DNA of 32,000 nt from Candidatus Kuenenia stuttgartensis (lineage in GTDB: Bacteria; Planctomycetota; Brocadiia; Brocadiales; Brocadiaceae): assembly GCF_900232105.1 (NCBI RefSeq), contig NZ_LT934425.1, positions 3,720,001 through 3,752,000 on the forward strand, read 5' to 3'. A model generated the notes under the pieces. That model was not told the DNA's origin, did not search any database, and saw only the letters and a list, made by a program, of their open reading frames with translations. Of this stretch, positions 4,478-24,401 are shown piece after piece (the first letter of the stretch is position 1; each line of letters starts with the position of its first letter). Position numbers and translations under genes: made by a program.

Positions 4478-4556
4478 GTAGGGGCGAAGCATTTGCTATA
4501 AATTGTCATAAATGCGTTCATACCCAAACGGGCAAATGCTTCGCCCCTGCTTTTTT
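4478..4556 (+). repeat. 73-nt hairpin element, copy 2 (best-preserved), followed by a T6 tract; probably doubles as a terminator
   Basis: GTAGGGGCGAAGCATTTGC ... GCAAATGCTTCGCCCCTGC has 18 of 19 positions complementary, then tttttt. It lies 50 nt after the stop at 4428. Confidence 0.85.
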
Positions 4557-4667: not shown

Positions 4668-6036
4668 GGCTCTTCAGGCAAATGAGTGGGTAAATTTTTG
4701 CATTTTTATATCTCTGGTAGCATACAAGTAAGAATTTTTAGCCGAAGATATTCCTCATTTCTCAGACCGTATGCTCTTCTCTGTATCACCCTAATCTTGT
4801 TATTTAAGGCCTTCGACAAAGCCTAATGGGACCTTGTTCTCAGGTCTGCTGTATGCTGCAATGCCATCACAGTGTTTCTCTATCATTTCTGCAAACTTCT
4901 CGTAAGGCTTTAACCGTTGCCACTTCAGCGATTCCTTCCAGTTATCGAAAAACTTCCTTGACCATCCCCCTGTCTTATAGCTCCATAATTGTCCAAAGGA
5001 TTCCTTCAACAGATAGGCAGTGTTGAGCCGTTTGTTTGCCATGAGCAGCTTCTTTAACGCCTTGCGTCCATCAAGGGTGAGGTTCTCTCTGTTTGACAGA
5101 AGCGTATATTTCTGCCCTTTGATATACGAACGTTCTTTACCTGAAAGCCGTGCATATTCCATCTTCCGCACTTTGTCCAACGCTTCCCCAAGATGCCTCA
5201 TTACATGAAACTTGTCATAAAGGATCGCAGCATGAAACGCATTCTCCCTCGTTGACTTCTCAAATGCCTTCCACATATCCATTACTGCCAACCGTATCTT
5301 CTTTACCTTCTTTGCACCAAGCCACTGGTAAAATATATCGAGACTCTCTTTAGACCGATCCTTCCCTCCAAACCAAATCGGTCTTCCACGCTCCAAATCG
5401 CTTACCACTATCCGATAGGTATGCCCTTTCCTTATGGATATTTCGTCTATACCAATTACACGAGGTGCTGCTACTGGATACCTCCGAAGCTGTTTCTTCA
5501 TGTATTCTTTGTCTAATGTCTTCACCGTATCCCAGTCCAGCTTGAACTCCTTCGCCACATCCTTTACGGTCATAGTACGGCACTTCCGTCCTACAGAATA
5601 GGCAAATCGCTTCGTGTAAAAGGGATTGCCCGCAAGCCATTCCAGTTTTTCCCGCTTCACCTTTTTGCACTTCCGACATAATACTCGCCGCACCTCCACT
5701 TCCAGGTAAATCCGTGCATCTCCACAGGATAAATCCCGTACCAGACGCACCTTCTTGTCGTAATGACTCCAATGAATCTTTCCACAACACCCACATCCCG
5801 TTTTTTTTGTGTCCGCTTAAGTCTAATAACACGTGCCTTCGAGTCTCCAAATATCCCCTTAATTTCTGCTCTCGGACTAAACCCGGGGAAACCTATATTC
5901 GTCCAGCAGTCGTCTCTTTTTTTTCATTCAATTAGCATACAGTTTTTTTGCGCATAAAAAACTTCTTTTTTCCCTTATTTTATGCTATGTTGCAGTCAAT
6001 TCATGACTCATTCTTACCCACTCACTTGCCTGAAGC
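4668..6036 (-). mobile_element. ISL3-family insertion sequence (~1.37 kb)
   Basis: The terminal inverted repeats are GGCTCTTCAGGCAAATGAGTGGGTAA (4668-4693) and the reverse complement of 6014-6036 (GCTTCAGGCAAGTGAGTGGGTAA). The GGCTCTTC-type tip is typical of ISL3. An ISL3-type transposase lies inside. No clear target-site duplication was seen. Confidence 0.8.
4800..5927 (-). pseudogene. ISL3-family transposase, N-terminal region broken by frameshifts
   Basis: The 316-aa ORF (4800-5750, GTG) has clear ISL3 transposase features, including the zinc-finger-like CRKC. The missing N-terminus (MKKKRRLLDEYRFPGFSPRAEIKGIF...RLKRT..KKTGCGCCGKIHWSHYDKK) is readable only by changing frame at GGGG 5885-5888 and at T8 5801-5808. 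Confidence 0.75.
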
Positions 6037-6086
6037 AAAACATTTGTATAACAACTTTTTTCCGATTGACACAACATATTATGTGA

Positions 6087-6395
6087 AGTCGAAAAGTTAA
6101 CTCTGCTGGGCTTTTCTATGAATATTTTTTGTTGAAAACTCTGAATTTCGAAGAAATGAATTCTGATTCAGCGGTTCCGGGTCTTAATAGAAACATTGCG
6201 CTTTCCACGGAAATCAAAATAGCACCTTATGAAAGGCTTAAAGATTTTAACCGCCAATGTGCCCCTTATCTTGAAAAAATAGATATAAATAATAAACAAA
6301 TCCGTATCCTCGAAAAACTACGCGATTTACTGTTACAGAAATCAATGAGTGGCAAAGTAAGGTTCAATTTGAAGAAAATTAAGGCTTCTGATTAA
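6087..6395 (+). pseudogene. hsdS: type I restriction-modification specificity subunit (HsdS), C-terminal fragment only
   Basis: The frame opens at 6087. The tail ...AVPGLNRN...LRDLLLQKSMSGKVRF matches the conserved HsdS C-terminal helix pattern (LRDxLLPKLxSGExRV). There is no N-terminal half, and no hsdM in the window. Confidence 0.6.
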
Positions 6396-6410
6396 TGGAC
6401 AGGTTGAAAA

Positions 6411-6932
6411 TTGAAAAAATATAATCCAAAAATACATCATCGTCAGTCAATCAGATTAAAAGAATACGATTATTCACAGGAAGGATTCTATTTTATTACG
6501 ATATGCACGAATCACTATGTATGTTTATTCGGCAAAATATACGATGGTAAAATGGTATTGAATAATGCGGGAAACATAGCAGAAGAATGTTGGTTAGATA
6601 TTCCAAAACATTATCCGAATACCATTTTACGTGAATATGTGATTATGCCGAACCATGTACACTGGATTATCGAAATCGTTGCACATGTAGGGGCGAATAA
6701 TTATTCGCCCCTACAAAACGGCACGTCCAAAACAATCGGCGCCATAGTGCGGGGATTTAAAATTGGCGTAACAAAATGGTTTCGGAAAAATACAAACGTA
6801 CATACGGTATGGCAACGTAATTATTACGAACATATTATACGCAACGAACAATCATATTATAAAATTTCAGAATACATTATCAATAATCCCTCTCATTGGC
6901 TAACTGATAAATACTATGAACAAAATTTCTGA
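6411..6932 (+). CDS. Y1/HUH transposase-like protein (IS200-like / REP-associated tyrosine transposase-like, COG1943 type)
   Basis: The N-terminus KIHHRQSIRLKEYDYSQEGFYFITICT is typical of the family. The HUH motif is HVHWII and the catalytic Tyr context is RNYYEHIIRNE. It has a TTG start and overlaps the hsdR start by 17 nt. Confidence 0.8.
   Translation: MKKYNPKIHHRQSIRLKEYDYSQEGFYFITICTNHYVCLFGKIYDGKMVLNNAGNIAEECWLDIPKHYPNTILREYVIMPNHVHWIIEIVAHVGANNYSPLQNGTSKTIGAIVRGFKIGVTKWFRKNTNVHTVWQRNYYEHIIRNEQSYYKISEYIINNPSHWLTDKYYEQNF
6687..6714. repeat. 28-nt perfect palindrome inside the Y1 transposase-like ORF
   Basis: GTAGGGGCGAATAA|TTATTCGCCCCTAC encodes VGANNYSPL. Its outer 11 nt equal the termini of the 73-nt hairpin elements. 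Confidence 0.95.
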
Positions 6933-7833
6933 AAATACCATCGAACAATTCGCCATCGAACTGCTCGAAAAATCAGGCTATCAATACGTCTATGGCCCCG
7001 ATGTTGCGCCCGACAGCGTAACACCTGAGCGACAGTCTTTTGAGGATGTTCTTCTCATTGAGCGGCTTACTGCCTTCGTGGTCCGCATCAATTCGAATGT
7101 CCCTGCGGATGCAAGGGAAGATGCGATAAAGTAATTGCTTTGTCTCAATTTACCCGATCTCATATCGAACAATGAAACTTTTCACCGGATGCTAACCGAA
7201 GGCATTAAGGTAAGCTACCAGAAAGATGGTAGCAGCCGTGGCGACCTCGTATGGCTTATTGATTTCAACTCCCCGGAGAACAACGACTTTTTGGTGTTGA
7301 ATCAGTACACGGTAATCGAGAACCACGTCAACAAAAGGCCTGATGTAGTTCTTTTCGTAAATGGATTACCGCTGGTAATTATCGAGCTAAAGAATCCTGC
7401 CGATGAAAACGCTACTGTTCACTCCGCCTTTCAGCAGATACAAACCTACAAGCAGGCGATTCCCGGATTGTTTACATACAACGGTTTCATCGTTATTTCA
7501 GATGGGCTGGAGGCCAGGGCAGGTACAATTTCCGCCGCTTTCAACCGTTTTATGGCGTGGAAGACGGCTGACGACAAGGTTGAAGCCTCGCCTCTTATTG
7601 GTCAGCTTGAGACACTCGTCAAGGGTCTGTTGAATAAGACTACTCTCTTAGACCTTGTCCGGCATTTTATTGTTTTTGAAAAATCCAAAAGAGAGGACAG
7701 AGAAACCGGTATTATCACTATACAGACAGTAAAGATACTTGCAGCGTATCATCAGTATTATGCGGTGAACAGGGACGTTGAATCAACGATTAGGGCGGCT
7801 GGGTATGTACCCACCCCTAGCCCCTCCCGATAG
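6916..7833 (+). pseudogene. hsdR: type I restriction enzyme R subunit (HsdR), N-terminal ~295 codons with an in-frame stop, truncated before the helicase motifs
   Basis: The N-terminus MNKISENTIEQFAIELLEKSGYQYVYG... and the nuclease-domain pattern RPDVVLFVNGLPLVIIELK are typical of HsdR. An in-frame TAA sits at 7132-7134. Similarity stops near 7800 (..AAYHQYYAVNRDVESTIRAAG), just where the ATP-binding motif I should follow. Confidence 0.8.
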
Positions 7834-10721: not shown

Positions 10722-10943
10722 TATAATGGACGGGCTTTTTCATACCAGTAGTTAAGATGCTTTTTTGGTAAGATAAGTAATAGAAAGGGAGGTCTGAAAA
10801 ATGAGAAAGGGTTTTGATGCAGAATACATGGCAAAGGTGGCATTGGATGCTATCAGGGAAGAAAAGACGCTGGCAGAATTGTCATCACAGTACGAAGTTC
10901 ATAAGACACAAATAGCAAAGTGGTGCAAACGAGCGATAGAAGG
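10722..10943 (+). mobile_element. IS3-family left-end remnant A (outer end + 5' part of orfA)
   Basis: These 222 nt are ~95% identical by eye to the reverse complement of 18466-18687. The candidate terminus is TGGACGGGC at 10727. Confidence 0.8.
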
Positions 10944-12920: not shown

Positions 12921-12986
12921 TTGGCAGTTGGCAATCTACAGTCTACAGTCGGCAAATTGCAGATTGCCGATTGAGGACTGAGGATT
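12921..12986. repeat. heptanucleotide tandem array with drifting unit
   Basis: The units read ttggcag ttggcaa tctacag tctacag tcggcaa attgcag attgccg attgagg actgagg. The array is related to the one at 24283-24338. Confidence 0.85.
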
Positions 12987-13024
12987 GTTTTTAGCGCAGT
13001 TCAAGCGTAGTATTAATGATGTTT

Positions 13025-14721: not shown

Positions 14722-14794
14722 GTAGGGGCTAAGCAATTACTATAAATTGTCATAAATAAGTGCATACCCCAACTGGTAAATGCCTCACCCCTAC
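14722..14794 (+). repeat. 73-nt hairpin element, copy 3 (diverged)
   Basis: gtaggggctaagcaattac-tataaattgtcataaataagtgcataccccaactg-gtaaatgcctcacccctac has 15 of 19 arm positions complementary. It lies 16 nt downstream of the marC-like stop (minus strand). Confidence 0.8.
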
Positions 14795-15686: not shown

Positions 15687-17237
15687 CTAGTCAACATTAA
15701 CGTCAAGTATTGATTGTAAATCGCCAGAGGAAAACTTTATGCTAATATTGTCTTTTTTTGATGTTTTCCTTGCGCCTGTTACTGTAAATACTGCCTTACC
15801 TGCTTCATCTGTCAAAATTGCAGTAGATGAAATCTTTACCTTGTTGCCATCCTTTTGGACAATTGCATCAATCTTAGCGTCCACTGCGGGGCTTCCGTTT
15901 TTACATTTTGCCTTGACTGTTACTTCGCTGCTTTCTCCTTCTTTGAGTTTAAGCTTTTTATCAGGATTTGTTGTTAAACTGCCAAGACTGCATGCCTCTG
16001 CCTGAACCTTTACCTCTAGTTTAGCGCTGAGTTTTTCAGCCTTGAATTTAATTTCTGCTGGCTCTGTATCGGTTTTCATATCACCGGACACAGCAAAAAC
16101 TGCCTTTCCATTTTTATCTGTTTCAGCGCTTTTGGGAGTAAGCGTTATATATTTCTTGCCTTTTATTACCTCGGCTTCTAGTTTAACGCCCTCTGCCGGA
16201 CTATCGTCCTTGCACTTTACTTTAACGGTAATGCTGGCATTTTTGCCTTTTTCCAGGGTTAATTTTTTATCGGGAAGCGTTATTACTGTTTTTGGTTTGC
16301 ATGGAGTTGTTATTTCTGTAGTTTCCTCTGCTGATGTTGTTTTAGCGGTGTCTGCGGAGGTTTTCTCTTCCGTTAGAGAAGTGCCCTCAACTTCAACTTC
16401 ATCAGTGGATATGGATTCATCAACTATTTCTTCGTTAGATGACTCCTCACCTTCTTCTTTCACCAGGGAAGCGGCAACGGTTTCTTCTTCAGAACCGGCT
16501 TCTGTGTCTTTTTCTGCTTCTGTTTTAACCTTTACCTCGAGAATTGTTTTAATATCATCTGCGGAAAATTTGATGGTAGGTGCATCTTTCTTCGTTTTAC
16601 TTATACCGGAAACGGTAAAGACGGCTTTGCCGCTTTCATCGGTTAATGCGCTGGAAGAGGAAAGTTTTATGCTATTACTGCCCTTCTGTATGATGGCATC
16701 CACTTTAACATCAACCGCGGGACTTCCATTGTTGCATTTTAACCTGACGGTTATATCGCTGCTTTGCCCTACGAAAAGTGTTACTTTGTTCTCAGGATTT
16801 GTCTTTATAGTATCCAACTTGCATTCTTCAGCCTGAACCTTTATCTCTAGCGTAGTGCTAAGTTTGTCTGCCTTGAATTTGATTTCGGCATTTTCCGTTT
16901 CTGTCTTCTTATCTCCCGTGATAGTAAACACGGCTTTGCCATTTTCGTCTGTTACCGCACTTTTTGGAGAAAAGGATATGTTTTTGTTGCCTTTTAATAC
17001 TTTCGTCTCTATGGCAACACCGGAAGCCGGGCTGTCGTCCTTGCATTTTAACCTTAGAATGACATTGCCGCTCTTGCCTTTTTTGATGGTAAGTGTCTTT
17101 TCCGGGTTAGTTTGCATAGACTTGGGCTTACAATCAGAGGCAATTGTATTGTTTGTTGGGGCAATAGCCGAAATAAATGAAACACAAATTAAAACAATAC
17201 TATACAAAAAAATATTTCTGCACGTAATTCCGTTCAT
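15687..17237 (-). CDS. secreted protein with four ~100-aa Ig-like (Big-type) domains and a central acidic linker
   Basis: There is a signal peptide. Four domains each begin with C..(T/N)P and contain LKCK..SPA and TDE(N/S/A)GKAVFT(V/I)(T/S)G. They cover aa 36-138, 139-238, 313-415 and 416-516. The E/T/S-rich linker covers aa 239-312. Confidence 0.8.
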   Translation of the reverse strand: MNGITCRNIFLYSIVLICVSFISAIAPTNNTIASDCKPKSMQTNPEKTLTIKKGKSGNVILRLKCKDDSPASGVAIETKVLKGNKNISFSPKSAVTDENGKAVFTITGDKKTETENAEIKFKADKLSTTLEIKVQAEECKLDTIKTNPENKVTLFVGQSSDITVRLKCNNGSPAVDVKVDAIIQKGSNSIKLSSSSALTDESGKAVFTVSGISKTKKDAPTIKFSADDIKTILEVKVKTEAEKDTEAGSEEETVAASLVKEEGEESSNEEIVDESISTDEVEVEGTSLTEEKTSADTAKTTSAEETTEITTPCKPKTVITLPDKKLTLEKGKNASITVKVKCKDDSPAEGVKLEAEVIKGKKYITLTPKSAETDKNGKAVFAVSGDMKTDTEPAEIKFKAEKLSAKLEVKVQAEACSLGSLTTNPDKKLKLKEGESSEVTVKAKCKNGSPAVDAKIDAIVQKDGNKVKISSTAILTDEAGKAVFTVTGARKTSKKDNISIKFSSGDLQSILDVNVD

Positions 17238-18302: not shown

Positions 18303-18608
18303 TTAAACCGTCTTGTTTTTTTCATCAACGCTCAATCTGTCTAGCTTTTTTTTAAGCCATTCGTTCTCCACCTTCAATTGCCCTATTTGCCGGTACAACT
18401 CATCTATTACCTTCTTCTTTTCTCCGATAGTCTTCGCCTCCTTTCCCTGAAATATCCCTCCTAATCCTTCTATCGCTCGTTTCCGCCACTTTGCTATTTG
18501 TGTCTTATGGACTTCGTACTGTGATGACAATTCTGCCAGCGTCTTTTCCTCCCTGATTGCATCCAATGCCACCTTTGCCATGTATTCTGCATCAAAACTC
18601 TTTCTCAT
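18303..18608 (-). CDS. IS3-family OrfA (HTH + leucine-zipper-like helix)
   Basis: The 101-aa ORF reads MRKSFDAEYMAKVALDAIREEKTLAELSSQYEVHKTQIAKWRKRA...LYRQIGQLKVENEWLKKKL, typical of IS3 OrfA. Confidence 0.75.
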   Translation of the reverse strand: MRKSFDAEYMAKVALDAIREEKTLAELSSQYEVHKTQIAKWRKRAIEGLGGIFQGKEAKTIGEKKKVIDELYRQIGQLKVENEWLKKKLDRLSVDEKNKTV

Positions 18609-18687
18609 TTTTCAGACCTCCCTTTCCATTACCTATCTTACCAAAAAAGCATCTTAACTACTGGTCTGAAAAAGCCCGTCCATTATA
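18303..18687 (-). mobile_element. IS3-family left-end remnant B (outer end + complete orfA, no orfB)
   Basis: The outer 222 nt match remnant A in inverted orientation. The element ends just after an A7 run (T7 at 18316-18322 on +). No DDE-encoding frame follows. Confidence 0.8.
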
Positions 18688-18759
18688 AAATAAATAAATA
18701 AAGAAATTAATTTTCCATCAAGACACAGGCCAAAGGAGATGTATAGGATTAAAAAATAT

Positions 18760-20790
18760 CTATTCATGGTTTAGATATTTTTTGATTTTTTTAATTAAAC
18801 AAAGCAATGCATCTACAAAACAGCAATAAATGGTCTTGACAAACCCATCCGCCGCACAAATAATTTTCTTTTCTTTATAAAAATGCTCCCATTGCCGCAA
18901 TTTTCTCTTACATCTTAATTCGCGGATACATACACCAAGTTTCGCACCGGCAGAACCATCCAGAAGATCAAGAATGTAAGGGCGCTTGAAACATTTATAG
19001 AAAAAAGCAGCAATTCCCTTTCGAATTCTTTTATAGTGGCGTTGACGTATATAAGTGCGGTTAGTATTTATAAGTGCTTTTATACCTGAAAAAAAATCAA
19101 CAGAAATTAGAACACGAGCTGCCGCATCAGCGGCGTTCCAGCTTTGACAATAACATGCTTGTTTATAGACTTCTTGTATTTTGTTAACAGCTATTTTTTT
19201 GCCTTGCAATCGTTCAATGTCTAAAATAATAATTTCACTCAAAAACCCATCTTCGAAGGAATCATATTCAGCAGATTCAGAACTAAGGCGAGAGAAATCG
19301 CTAAATATTTTTTCAAAATTGGTTTGTTTCTCAATAACGTGTTCTTTTTTCAAGCGTTTGCAATGAGGAGTATTGCTTCGTATTATATCACGTGCTATCT
19401 CAAGATAAAGGCGTGTTATAATTGCCAATTCTCTTCTGTCAAGTAGCAATGGAGGATCAAGAACAATTGGTTCTAGAGTTTTTATTGCATCGTCCAATTT
19501 TCCAAGGCGCCAATAAGTAAAGCCTTTTAGACAAGTGATTTTTGAGGACTCATTGTTAAGATTGTCGTTTACGTTAATTTTTTCTAAATATTGCATTGCA
19601 GAGCAATAGGCAGATACACTTAAAAGAGCATTTGCTATATCCCAATATAGTAGTGGCGTAAGTTTTGTTATAGTATTTTTACTACTATTATAGGATAATT
19701 CGCGTATATATTGAATATGCAAGGAAGGCCATCCTGCAATAACCCCTGGCCCTTTATCAAACATAATATAAGTAGAGTTTCTAAGATTTTCTAAAGAAAT
19801 TTCACTGAACCAATCTTTAAAGTTTTTTTCCCACTCAGGATTTTGGGAATTTGTGCTACGTTTCCATCCATATTCAGCACCTAATTTGAGTAACCAATTA
19901 TCTTTTGTATCTTCAGATGTAAGATTAGTTCTAATCCAATATTTAGTGAAATCTGGTGGTCTCTCACCTTTTTTTACAACCCAGATTAATTTCGCACAAG
20001 TATTATTTAAGTTTCTTAAGTGAGGCGAAATATCAATATCGCCATATCCACTGTAGCCGACGACAAGAACTACTTTATTATTAAGCAGTTTTTCGATATA
20101 GTTGTACTCTTCAAGATATTTTCCTTTTATTAAAGCAGGAGAAGTTGCTTTGATCTTACCCTGAAAAACATCTCCATGAAGCTTAAGTATGTATGGTTCG
20201 TTTTCTAAATTATTTAATGGTTGAGAATGAATTAATAATCGGATGCTATTGTTACACAATTCAATGGCATTATCAAAATTAGTTGTAATAACAGCGCTTG
20301 CCTTCTTTTTCTCAAGTAGAAAGCTAATCGCCGAATGGTTTGAGTTAAATTGTTTTTCTTTGCATTTAAATACAGCTCTTATTAAAGAATCAATAACACT
20401 TGGCTTTTCTTTCGATGGTTGTTCAAACGCATTAATAGAGGAATCTGGAGAACCAACGTCTTTTGAAATAAAGGAAACTTGAATACGATATAAAAGATCT
20501 TCGAATTTAGTATTTATACGAAGAGAAACATATACTCCTTCCGCTAATTCATACGAGTACTTGGCTAACAATCTATCATAGTATGAAGGTGATTTTTCTG
20601 CATCTTCTAATTCTAAAAATAGTTTTAAATTATAAAAGAAGTGCTTTGAAAAGTCAGAAACTGATGGTAGAAAATTTTTTTCAATCCCATTTCCTAACAA
20701 AGAAATTCCGCAACCACAAAAAATGACAAAAGAATCACCAAGCTCATTTCTTAGTTTATTGAATGAGTTTAATTCTATTGCATATGTCAA
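18760..20790 (-). CDS. SIR2_2-family (SIR2-like, PF13289-type) protein with long alpha-helical / TPR-like C-terminal half
   Basis: The SIR2_2 motif order is FVIFCGCGIS (aa 21-30), VITTNFDNAIE (Asn171 codon 20278-20280), ILKLHGD (His205 codon 20176-20178), VLVVGYSGYGDIDISP. The C-terminal ~370 aa are helical and include TPR-like CLKGFTYWRLGKLDDAIKTLEPIV. The TTG start has GAGGAG 11 nt upstream. The gene is markedly AT-rich. Confidence 0.75.
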   Translation of the reverse strand: MTYAIELNSFNKLRNELGDSFVIFCGCGISLLGNGIEKNFLPSVSDFSKHFFYNLKLFLELEDAEKSPSYYDRLLAKYSYELAEGVYVSLRINTKFEDLLYRIQVSFISKDVGSPDSSINAFEQPSKEKPSVIDSLIRAVFKCKEKQFNSNHSAISFLLEKKKASAVITTNFDNAIELCNNSIRLLIHSQPLNNLENEPYILKLHGDVFQGKIKATSPALIKGKYLEEYNYIEKLLNNKVVLVVGYSGYGDIDISPHLRNLNNTCAKLIWVVKKGERPPDFTKYWIRTNLTSEDTKDNWLLKLGAEYGWKRSTNSQNPEWEKNFKDWFSEISLENLRNSTYIMFDKGPGVIAGWPSLHIQYIRELSYNSSKNTITKLTPLLYWDIANALLSVSAYCSAMQYLEKINVNDNLNNESSKITCLKGFTYWRLGKLDDAIKTLEPIVLDPPLLLDRRELAIITRLYLEIARDIIRSNTPHCKRLKKEHVIEKQTNFEKIFSDFSRLSSESAEYDSFEDGFLSEIIILDIERLQGKKIAVNKIQEVYKQACYCQSWNAADAAARVLISVDFFSGIKALINTNRTYIRQRHYKRIRKGIAAFFYKCFKRPYILDLLDGSAGAKLGVCIRELRCKRKLRQWEHFYKEKKIICAADGFVKTIYCCFVDALLCLIKKIKKYLNHE

Positions 20791-21168
20791 ATTTAAAATA
20801 GCTCCTCAAGAAATATTTTTAAACAAAAAAATAAAAGTAGAATTAGCAATAAATATTTTAATTAACAATTAAAATATACCAAATTATATTGATATTTACT
20901 TCTATAGCATTTGTATCTGTTTGAATTTGTAAATATGAAATATTAAAAGTTCTTAAGTCATTGATATTGGGCTGGTTTCCCGCTTTTCCTTGAAAATTAA
21001 GATATTGTTGGCATACATCAATTCTATCATTTTTGATTGATTTTAGCACGAAATTAGCACGCACATCGAACAACCATGACGCTGTCAAAGTTTTCCATAA
21101 GCACATAAAATACAAAGATATGTAAAAAAACGTGGACATTCCCCCTAAAATATTTTATATTATAGGGC

Positions 21169-22928
21169 ATGAACCAGCATACAACACCAATCGATAACAC
21201 ACACAACGAACTACTTCATTCAATTACCGTTCGTCCTGTTTCACAAAACGACCAGGCAAATTGGGACACACTGATGCGCCAGCATCATTACCTTGGATTT
21301 CGTTCTCTCGTAGGAGAATCAATTCGCTACGTAGCGGAATCACAGGGACAATGGCTTGCCTTGATCGGCTGGGCTGCCGCAGCATTAAAATGTACCGTTC
21401 GCGATAAGTGGATTGGATGGCCGCCATTTTTAAAATCGCAACGACTGAAACTCATAGCAAACAACTCACGTTTCCTGATCCTTCCTCAGATACACGTACC
21501 AAACCTTGCCTCCCGTATTCTTTCTCTTAACCTTAAGCGCTTATCACAAGACTGGACTAAGGTCTATGGGCATCCAATCTGGCTTGTGGAGACCTTTGTC
21601 GATCCTCGTTTTTTTAAAGGCGTCTGCTATAAGGCCGCAGGATGGATTTTTTTAGGACATTCAACCGGTTTTGCCAGATCATCACAAGGCTATCTTCTGC
21701 ACAATAAGCCAAAGATGGTCTTTGTTCGCTCATTGAAAGCACAAGTCCAAAAACAACTTAACAACCTTAATCTTACCATACAATTAAGAAAGGAGACAAA
21801 GCCTATGAAATTATCTTTAAAAGATGCGGAATTTCTTGACGAATTATTGCAGCAAATCCCTGAACATCGCATGCCCAGAGGCGTTCGCCACAGGAAACGT
21901 TCTATCCTGGCAATTTCTATCTGTGCTATCATCTGCAATGCCTGGAGCTTTGCCGCCATTGCAGAGTGGGCAAAGCGTTGTCCGCAAAATATGCTAAAAC
22001 GTCTCTCCTGCCGTTATAATACAAAAACGAAACGATACGAACCACCGAGTGAACCTACCATCAGGCGTTTCTTACAGCAGGTGGATGCAGAAGCAGTTGA
22101 TAAAGTCCTCTCGCGTTGGTTTCAATCTGTAGGTGATAAAAGCCTGCCCATTGCGGTTGACGGGAAAACCCTTTGCGGTGCAAGACAGCCTGACGGCAAA
22201 CAGGTACATTTGCTTGCCGCTTTTCTTCATAAACAGGGTATAGTTCTCGCACAAACTCAGGTAGACCGCAAAACAAACGAAATACCGATGGTTCCGGTAT
22301 TGTTTGATGATTTAGACATAAAAGACCGTGTCGTTACTTTCGATGCCTTACATGCGCAAAAGGAAACCGCCCGTTATCTGGTAGAAGACAAAAAGGCAGA
22401 ATATATATTCACGGTGAAAGATAATCAAAAAACCATAAAACAAGCCATCTAGGAACTGAATCTCAGTTCTTTTCCCCCCCTCAGCACGAAACAATTGAAA
22501 AAGGCCATGGCCGCATTGAAATCCGCAGGATTTGGACCAGCACCGAATTAAACGAATAACTTGATTTCCCCTACGTTAAGCAGGTATTTTGCATTCATAG
22601 AATATTTACAAAAGTCAAGACCGGCAAAAAGACCGAGGAAATTGTTTACGGTATTACCAGCCTGACACAACAAAAAGCAAGTCCCAAAACCATTCTTAAG
22701 TTTTCCCGCGGACACTGGTCAATAGAAAATGGACTTCATTATGTGCGTGATACCTCCTTCCGTGAAGACCATTCTCAAATACGCACACAAAATGCCCCAA
22801 GGGCAATGGCTTCTTTGAAGAACCTTGTGGTTGGGCTGTTTCATTTTCTCAATGTACCAAATATTGCAAAGACGCTCAGAAATTTTGCGGCAAGACCTTT
22901 TCTTGCACTTCAAATGCTTCGCTTGTAA
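21169..22928 (+). pseudogene. ISAs1-family (H-repeat type) DDE transposase with DUF4338-like N-terminal domain; disrupted
   Basis: aa ~20-200 read HHYLGFRSLVGESIRYVA..WLALIGWAAAALKCTVRDKWIGW..LIANNSRFLILP..NLASRIL..YGHPIWLVETFVDP.FFKGVCYKAAGW, a DUF4338 pattern. The transposase part then follows (DDE_Tnp_1_assoc-like, and later EKGHGRIEIRR, HWSIENGLHYVRDTSFREDHSQIR). Lesions are a TAG at 22450-22452, a frame change in the C7 run at 22474-22480, and a TAA at 22557-22559. Confidence 0.75.
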
Positions 22929-24246: not shown

Positions 24247-24401
24247 TAACCTCTCAATAAGTTGAGGTTTTTATAATAGTTTCTACAGTCTACAGCCTAC
24301 AGTCTACAGTCTGCAATTTGCCGATTGCCGATTGCTGACAGCACAGTATTCCCTATTAATGAAGTAAGGGGGGGTGTTTACCTCAACTTATTGAGAAGTT
24401 A
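24247..24401. repeat. 155-bp inverted-repeat-bounded element containing a heptamer array
   Basis: The arms taacCtctcaataagttgaggt (24247-24268) and acctcaacttattgagaAgtta (24380-24401) are complementary at 21 of 22 positions. Inside lie ctacagt ctacagc ctacagt ctacagt ctgcaat ttgccga ttgccga ttgctga (24283-24338). Confidence 0.85.

Follow-up and report, generated by a model that had tools for sequence, protein, structure and literature searches.

We analysed a stretch of 32,000 nucleotides (hereafter the window) from the anammox planctomycete Candidatus Kuenenia stuttgartiensis, whose complete genome measures 4.4 Mb (contig NZ_LT934425.1, positions 3,720,001 to 3,752,000 of the forward strand). 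Icd, FabF, MarC, CbiJ and ApbE encoded in the window have the exact sequences of proteins deposited for this organism. At 18760-20790 on the minus strand lies a complete gene that encodes 676 amino acids (aa) plus a stop codon and starts with TTG. We refer to it as the SIR2-TPR gene, after the SIR2-like first half of its product and the helical second half, which resembles tetratricopeptide repeats (TPR). An earlier note on this DNA had proposed it as a candidate defence gene wedged between insertion sequence (IS) remnants, and the list of open reading frames (ORFs) confirms that it fills the gap between 18687 and 21169. The SIR2_2 half, which has a Rossmann-type fold, covers aa 1-295 (19906-20790, minus) and is recognised from Pfam, profile matches, invariant residues and a beta/alpha structure model. 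The second part, a C-terminal all-helical TPR-like superhelix of aa 296-645 (18856-19905, minus), is delimited by structure models, conservation and the ratio of nonsynonymous to synonymous substitution rates (dN/dS), and is presumed to be the sensor or regulatory half. The protein ends in a lineage-specific tail of aa 646-676 (18763-18855, minus), which contains three cysteines and is predicted to extend the last long helix (613-675).

Upstream of the gene is an AT-rich spacer of 378 bp, assigned to no strand (20791-21168, GC content 0.262). It holds a Shine-Dalgarno sequence, GAGGAG, at 20802-20807 on the minus strand, 11 nt upstream of the TTG start, and a weak promoter-like site at 20882 to 20855, also on the minus strand; in scans for promoter-like and terminator signals, the number found was not above shuffle expectation. 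The gene itself has a GC content of 0.328, compared to a mean of 0.400 ± 0.016 (minimum 0.368) for the 2-kb windows outside this islet, and its GC content at third codon positions (0.241) is the lowest among 25 ORFs of the window. The base composition of the gene is foreign to the surrounding genome. The AT-rich islet that had been described from spot counts of single lines is therefore real, but the deviation is smaller than those counts suggested, with a GC content of 0.428 for icd and of 0.412 for fabF, and not of 0.58. Neither Rfam families nor tRNA genes were detected in the whole window.

The gene is neither newly found nor strain-specific. The exact protein sequence occurs in 65 contigs, including the 4.4-Mb genome, and is present in both complete Kuenenia genomes and in many metagenome-assembled genomes (MAGs). 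Within Kuenenia the protein is almost invariant, and the window copy and most other Kuenenia copies are full length with every catalytic residue present. It had already been deposited as QII11460.1 / KsCSTR_20810 under generic names ("hypothetical protein", "SIR2 family protein", "SIR2-like domain-containing protein" and, at JGI, "TPR repeat protein"), and literature searches on Kuenenia and SIR2, on SIR2-TPR and on the PADLOC candidate PDC-S65 gave no match. The domain-centric discovery papers and the Kuenenia comparative-genomics paper make no mention of the gene or of its architecture. Horizontal acquisition, which the earlier note had also suggested, agrees with the foreign composition; since the exact protein is shared by both complete genomes and many MAGs, any such acquisition predates the divergence of the sequenced strains.

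The SIR2 domain and the helical second half

The Pfam model SIR2_2 (PF13289) matched aa 166-276 with 32 bits against a cut-off of 24.5 (E 1.6e-7), which bears out the family assignment previously made from motifs, and all homologues carry a precomputed PF13289 match. The canonical sirtuin model (PF02146) scored 16 bits against a cut-off of 24, and the NCBIfam deacylase model 11 bits against 243. Also, among the positions that are at least 85% conserved in 58 full-length representatives of the family, there were no conserved Cys pairs that could form a Cys4 zinc module. The SIR2_2 match, the low sirtuin score and the missing zinc module were together counted in favour of an NAD+ glycohydrolase (NADase). 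The motif series FCGCGIS (aa 24-30), TTNFDN (with N171 and D173), KLHGD (with H205) and VVGYSGYGD (aa 243-251), the last of which runs on as GYSGYGDIDI, was found at the residues previously given for it and is conserved in the 58 representatives. Invariant in all of them are T169, N171, F172, D173, K203, H205, G206, G245, Y246, G250, D251, D253 and N298, whereas G26 and S30 are conserved in 93% and 91%, respectively.

The catalytic residues of DSR2 are S51, N133, D135 and H171 (PMC11850899), and they correspond to S30, N171, D173 and H205 in the Kuenenia protein. The codon for Asn171, the counterpart of DSR2 N133, is located at 20278-20280 on the minus strand (att on the plus strand, read as AAT), and that for His205, the counterpart of DSR2 H171, at 20176-20178 on the same strand (atg on the plus strand, read as CAT). 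In sequence-profile comparisons with the PDB, the best matches were the Sir2 protein of SPARSA (8in8/8jkz, 2.8e-7) and DSR2 (5.6e-5), in both cases over ~90-100 residues of the SIR2 core only, and the catalytic motifs align to TTNFDD/KIHGD of SPARSA Sir2. The first half of the protein is a SIR2_2 fold with an intact and invariant catalytic set, and its nearest solved relatives, by sequence and by fold, are all immune NADases, i.e. SPARSA Sir2, DSR2, KomC, Avs5 and SIR2/HerA.

An AlphaFold model of the whole protein (predicted local distance difference test, pLDDT, 78.9; predicted template modelling score 0.76) consists of a beta/alpha SIR2 domain (aa 1-295) followed by ~17 helices. When the whole model was compared to the PDB by Foldseek, DSR2 chains were the best matches (E 3e-6), with a template modelling (TM) score of only 0.23, and they were followed by SPARSA Sir2, KomC, Avs5 and SIR2/HerA, all aligned via the SIR2 core. 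The C-terminal half modelled alone is all-helical (pLDDT 73.9) and retrieved Rap, LGN/Pins, AimR and consensus TPR proteins (TM ~0.45, E ~3e-3), but DSR2 was absent from its top 50 structure matches. By sequence, this half matched no Pfam family at the cut-off and no solved structure significantly; the sub-threshold matches were TPR_1 (0.072), ANAPC3 (0.021) and SRP72 (0.004). The C-terminal half is a helical-repeat region, as had been described, and the models suggest that it is TPR-like, a likeness seen only at the level of the fold or below the sequence threshold.

Residues conserved in the second half of the 58 representatives are N298, W320, W327, Y395, W427, R428, R460, E464 and W634. 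The last 31 residues (aa 646-676) correspond to 86% gaps in the alignment of these 58 sequences, and this tail is specific to the Kuenenia protein, as is an insertion at about aa 110-128. The Cys-rich tail that had been noted exists in so far as 7 of the 17 cysteines fall in aa 600-676, but part of this stretch lies in the last 31 residues, which 86% of the relatives do not have.

A small family with varied neighbourhoods

A word-indexed search returned 12 relatives with 24-35% identity, nearly all of them full length, and an exhaustive profile search of 1.84 billion cluster representatives returned 105 at E <= 1e-30, of which ~58 are full length (567-712 aa). The family is discrete and small, with about 100 clusters and a length of roughly 600 aa. 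Genome matches that carry an organism name come from Chloroflexota, Acidobacteriota and Armatimonadota, and the family is patchy and non-syntenic across phyla. A phage, plasmid or viral origin was considered and rejected, since there were no matches in the phage, plasmid and viral-contig collections or in the viral structure library.

In a lineage whose proteins are 86-89% identical, the SIR2 half had a dN/dS of 0.11 (amino-acid identity 91.0%) and the C-terminal half one of 0.15 (amino-acid identity 85.5%). Family-wide, the mean column conservation was 0.48 for the N-terminal and 0.34 for the C-terminal half. The dN/dS values indicate that the whole protein is kept by selection, with the second half drifting faster. 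Close to the family are 24 sister proteins (within P0106-P0154; 450-765 aa) that combine the SIR2 half of the clade with C-termini missed by the C-half profile of the family. According to HHalign, 12 of the 24 contain very remote versions of the same C-half module (98% probability, 272 columns), and 6 of the 24 a different, longer TPR array that has only a 32-column junction in common with it. The joining of the SIR2 half to diverged or different TPR C-termini in these 24 proteins amounts to a constant effector with a variable second half, as would be expected of a sensor-effector. A word-indexed search for fusions of the C-half recovered only one known member and was uninformative, and 12 matches to the C-half only turned out to be fragments.

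The SIR2-TPR gene is a solo gene. In agreement with the earlier note, no SLOG, HerA, pAgo or STAND gene was found in the window, and no TIR gene either. An all-against-all comparison of neighbouring genes across 13, and then 27, homologue loci did not reveal a conserved partner gene. A small antitoxin-like gene was likewise not conserved beside the SIR2-TPR gene in the 27 loci. A co-oriented UvrD-like helicase gene ends 40 nt upstream in four loci, but was rejected as a general partner because these loci represent one lineage (SIR2 proteins 86-89% identical, upstream DNA 80-89% identical) and two of the four contain a truncated helicase gene next to an intact SIR2 gene. A ~270-aa methyltransferase, present in three loci, was rejected as well, since its distance and orientation vary and it is a generic S-adenosylmethionine (SAM) methyltransferase.

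Several individual neighbourhoods contain defence or mobile genes. In locus L014 (1901-11773) the order is ParE toxin, HsdR, NB-ARC/Schlafen STAND, HsdM, HsdS and the SIR2 gene, followed by an integrase and Mrr, and in L020 (93-6717) HsdM, HsdS and a canonical TPR protein of 551 aa precede the SIR2 gene. Both members are therefore situated at the 3' end of type I restriction-modification (R-M) clusters, and since they are only 27% identical, we consider the two associations to be independent. UvrD and SF1 helicases are located upstream and an NB-ARC gene downstream in L027, and further hallmarks are EAD7 (L028), an integrase (L030), an ImmA/IrrE peptidase (L033), an ISL3 transposase with HepT, Fic and a caspase domain (L007), two integrases with ParA (L013), ParB with a Dam-like methyltransferase (L017), and the IS remnants on either side of the gene in the Kuenenia window. 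In L015, which also has a DDE transposase gene, a TIR_2 protein (366 aa, 5554-6654) is encoded directly upstream of family member P0012, a Thoeris-like pairing that occurs in only one of the 27 loci. Altogether, defence or mobile hallmarks were present within ~5 kb in ~11 of ~20 independent loci, with annotation limited to the immediate neighbours in several loci. The remaining loci are ordinary, with a kdp operon (L003), FHA and CTP synthase (L004), MoeA (L009), RecO (L016), an AMP-binding enzyme (L018), Mrp (L023) or DinB/TonB (the contig of P0013). Defence and mobile neighbourhoods are thus repeated but not universal. Since the count has no background rate, the neighbourhoods are suggestive and not proof, and the earlier proposal of a defence gene is supported by them in a circumstantial way, with ~11 of ~20 loci on its side and the housekeeping loci on the other.

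These neighbourhoods raise the question whether the protein acts alone. It might be a non-autonomous effector, activated by or acting jointly with partners that are unlinked or variable, for instance a STAND sensor, a type I R-M complex or a TIR signal producer. The TPR half would then be a docking surface and not the primary sensor. The two type I R-M clusters with their distant SIR2 members, the TIR_2 gene in L015, the UvrD gene 40 nt upstream in one lineage, and the NB-ARC genes adjacent in L014 and L027 all fit such a role. However, no type of partner was seen at more than two of the independent loci, the UvrD gene is decaying beside a SIR2 gene that remains intact, and Kuenenia and many other loci have no candidate partner within 5 kb. 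We therefore consider dependence on a partner unlikely.

The ordinary loci bear on a different alternative, namely that the protein is a cellular, non-immune NAD-dependent enzyme, either a protein deacylase or an ADP-ribosyltransferase, which is brought to a host substrate by its TPR half and has a regulatory role. This would fit the generic use of TPR domains in protein-protein interactions, the housekeeping surroundings of about half of the loci, the fixation and near invariance of the gene in Kuenenia, and the purifying selection on both halves. Yet, the canonical sirtuin model remains below its cut-off (16 versus 24 bits), zinc-ribbon cysteines are not conserved, the closest relatives are immune NADases without exception, the family has a patchy distribution over the phyla with neither synteny nor a conserved neighbourhood, and the gene is foreign in composition and flanked by IS remnants. 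A role of this kind seems to us improbable, to about the same degree as the dependence on a partner.

Mobile DNA around the gene

The remnant on the downstream side of the gene is an IS3-type element at 18303-18687 on the minus strand, which comprises a 101-aa OrfA (18303-18608) and, at 18687, the outer end of the IS. The last nucleotide of a 222-nt repeat (18466-18687) coincides with this end, and an inverted copy of the repeat, 96% identical, is present at 10722-10943; for this reason 18687 is considered a genuine IS terminus, in line with what had been read from the sequence. OrfA matches HTH_Tnp_1 below the threshold (E 0.011), and the public names in its cluster are transposase and IS3 family transposase. 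The second IS3-type end (10722-10943) stops abruptly at 10943 and is followed by metallophosphoesterase and GT4 glycosyltransferase genes; both copies are thus regarded as truncated remnants.

On the other side lies an ISAs1-family transposase pseudogene at 21169-22928 on the plus strand. Its reading frame is open as far as 22452; according to frame analysis, the remainder of the DDE domain, up to 22928, follows in another frame and contains an in-frame stop, so that the earlier description as a pseudogene is correct. The Pfam matches are DruA (3.8e-23), DDE_Tnp_1_assoc (3.2e-20) and DDE_Tnp_1 (3.3e-7); the product of 21169-22452 is named 'ISAs1 family transposase' at NCBI, and other copies are 442 aa long. 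The first ~170 residues of this transposase, ahead of the DDE domains, match DruA/DUF4338, the Druantia protein family, and the same region has a weaker match to the phage Mom family (4e-5). There are many copies of this DruA-like ISAs1 transposase in Kuenenia, which form a cluster of 74 members, usually of 442 aa.

Farther away, a 71-nt element with inverted termini (GTAGGGGCGAAGCATTTG...CAAATGCTTCGCCCCT) occurs three times in the window, at 2013-2083, 4478-4548 and 14722-14792, with 82-94% identity between the copies, and there is an ORF at 6411-6932 (plus strand) that carries the public name RayT / IS200-like 'REP element-mobilizing transposase'. The 71-nt elements and this ORF look like a REP/RayT pair. 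At 7135-7833 (plus strand) there is a 232-aa remnant of the HsdR subunit of a type I restriction enzyme, for which other Kuenenia strains have versions of 1,354-1,369 aa in the same 90% cluster. The HsdR remnant adjoins the ISL3 (4800-5750) and RayT genes, and on this basis the region from ~4.5 to 23 kb is a decayed mobile and defence zone mixed with housekeeping genes. The gene at 15687-17237 (minus strand) encodes an exported protein of 516 aa with Big_1/MG4-like Ig repeats and an acidic Ser/Thr/Glu-rich linker. It has an internal duplication of 300 nt (831 nt apart, 70% identical), and some Kuenenia records contain a 476-aa variant. Finally, a ~50-nt repeat of short tandem motifs (CAGTCTACAG..., GCAAATTGCAGATTGCCGATTG) is found in intergenic DNA at 12925-12988 and 24285-24339. 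The two sites are separated by ~11 kb, and the repeat occurs in direct as well as in inverted register.

The surroundings also allow the gene to be seen as part of mobile DNA, for which it would serve as an addiction or conflict module of the toxin type, or, in the case of Kuenenia, as an inert remnant of such a module between dead IS elements. IS remnants are present on both flanks, integrases, ParA/ParB and transposases are found beside several homologues, and several Kuenenia MAGs record the SIR2 gene as two half-length ORFs. The split copies (P0205-P0208, P0212 and P0214) have three break positions, after about aa 248, 277 and 293, and P0208 has an additional frameshift near aa 606. These copies reflect either independent pseudogenisation or homopolymer sequencing error: one of the breaks coincides with an A7 run and may therefore be a sequencing error, from which real decay is not separable. 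On the other hand, the protein is full length and has its complete set of catalytic residues in the window and in most of the Kuenenia copies, no antitoxin-like small gene is conserved alongside, and the family is absent from plasmids and phages. We regard an addiction module or an inert remnant as unlikely, slightly more so than the two alternatives discussed above.

Relation to known systems and a proposed sensor-effector

The closest parallel in architecture is DSR2 of Bacillus subtilis. Like the Kuenenia protein, DSR2 is a single polypeptide from a solo gene, with an N-terminal SIR2 domain, the same Ser/Asn/Asp/His set and a subsequent all-helical repeat region, and it was the best whole-protein structural match. 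However, DSR2 has ~1,000 aa, compared to about 600-676 aa here, the MID and the HEAT-like C-terminal domain occur in DSR2 only, sequence similarity is limited to ~90 residues of the SIR2 core, and the global TM score is low. Membership of DSR2 was rejected, since only the SIR2 core aligns, the model of the C-terminal half did not find DSR2 and no DSR model was among the PADLOC matches of 13 family members. The SIR2-APAZ protein of SPARSA has the closest SIR2 core, as judged from both the PDB comparison and the PADLOC model Aga_SIR2 (2.8e-11), and a similar length of ~585 aa, but an APAZ domain is missing here and no pAgo gene was found in the window or in any homologue locus. The Aga_SIR2 matches span only profile positions 112-258 of 1010, so that they are confined to the SIR2 core, and SPARSA was also rejected.

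The PADLOC candidate PDC-S65 is a SIR2-containing single-gene system with hidden Markov models of 503 and 592 positions, and it was matched by 12 of the 13 members. The best of these matches was 4.5e-13, whereas the Kuenenia protein matched with 4e-6 over aa 127-249 (123 residues; profile positions 10-139 of 503). Such matches are partial, weak and far from full length, and membership was rejected. ThsA of Thoeris shares the SIR2 NADase effector fold, but Pfam detected no SLOG or Macro domain here, the window has no TIR gene, and the PADLOC models for ThsA gave marginal matches (2e-4) in 2 of the 13 members; with a TIR_2 neighbour in 1 of 27 loci only, a Thoeris assignment was rejected. SIR2-HerA, Avs5 (SIR2-STAND) and KomC of Kongming have the SIR2 NADase effector fold in common with the family. 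The first two were rejected because of the absence of a P-loop or NTPase domain in the protein, of HerA and of any conserved neighbour, and KomC differs in that Kom partners are not found at the SIR2-TPR gene. The earlier statement that no named system fits is thus borne out, since the PADLOC models touch only the SIR2 core. The protein parallels DSR2 in architecture and falls outside DSR2, ThsA, SPARSA, SIR2-HerA, Avs5 and PDC-S65. Its novelty is most likely that of a variation on a known theme, i.e. single-protein SIR2 NADases with a helical-repeat second half.

Based on this parallel, we propose that the SIR2-TPR protein may be an autonomous DSR-like NADase immune protein in which a TPR sensor is combined with a SIR2 effector and which aborts infection, a reading that we consider the most likely one and to which we assign a probability of about one half. 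The N-terminal SIR2_2 domain would be an NAD+ glycohydrolase that is inactive at rest, and the C-terminal TPR-like superhelix would hold it in this state until the binding of a ligand that derives from the infection and is most likely a phage protein or peptide. Ligand binding, probably together with oligomerisation, would open the active site, and the depletion of NAD+ would leave the infected cell unable to support phage replication (abortive infection). A precedent is DSR2, an NADase that forms a tetramer and is activated by a phage tail tube protein (PMC11850899). It is by analogy with DSR2 (PMC11850899) and with other SIR2 immune effectors that NADase rather than deacylase activity, ligand sensing by the TPR half and an abortive-infection phenotype are attributed to the protein, which we infer to be active in Kuenenia. 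The resemblance of the C-terminal half to ligand-binding TPR receptors (Rap, AimR and LGN) was counted in favour of this proposal, and so were the foreign composition and the IS flanks.

Several observations speak against this proposal. About half of the homologue loci lie amid ordinary housekeeping genes, and in Kuenenia the sole nearby defence-type gene is the HsdR remnant ~11 kb away. The structural similarity is weak (TM 0.23 to DSR2 and ~0.45 to TPR proteins) and the confidence of the models is moderate (pLDDT 79 for the whole protein and 74 for the C-terminal half). The PADLOC models reach the SIR2 core only, and no PADLOC family covers more. Among the re-scored matches of the exhaustive search, the C-half module was never joined to a different effector. 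To this has to be added that the family was not found in collections of phages, plasmids and viral contigs or in a library of viral structures, and that several Kuenenia MAGs record the gene as two half-length ORFs.

A more specific version of the proposed sensor concerns the proteins retrieved with the C-terminal half alone. Rap and AimR, which are RRNPP receptors, and LGN/Pins form helical superhelices with a groove that accommodates peptides or segments of proteins, and they align with TM scores of 0.43-0.48 over ~320-390 columns. The TPR half could accordingly have an RRNPP-like groove of the Rap/AimR type that senses a short peptide or an exposed protein segment produced during the infection and is directly coupled to NAD+ depletion. 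With E values of ~3e-3, 10-14% identity and no Pfam TPR match at the cut-off, the similarity may be generic, and we consider a sensor of this type a long shot. If true, the protein would be a compact 'mini-DSR' with a sensor of the peptide-receptor type. It would also give the anammox Planctomycetes their first described innate immune effector, which they would have in common with Chloroflexota and Acidobacteriota.

If the protein instead had a cellular role, it would merely be one more annotated SIR2 family protein. As an autonomous NADase defence protein, it would be a compact (~600 aa) addition to the DSR-type sensor-effectors, with a sensor of the TPR type and not of the HEAT type, and it would come from the Planctomycetota, Chloroflexota, Acidobacteriota and Armatimonadota, phyla that experiments on phage defence have hardly touched. 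The phage resistance of Kuenenia is of practical relevance to anammox reactors.

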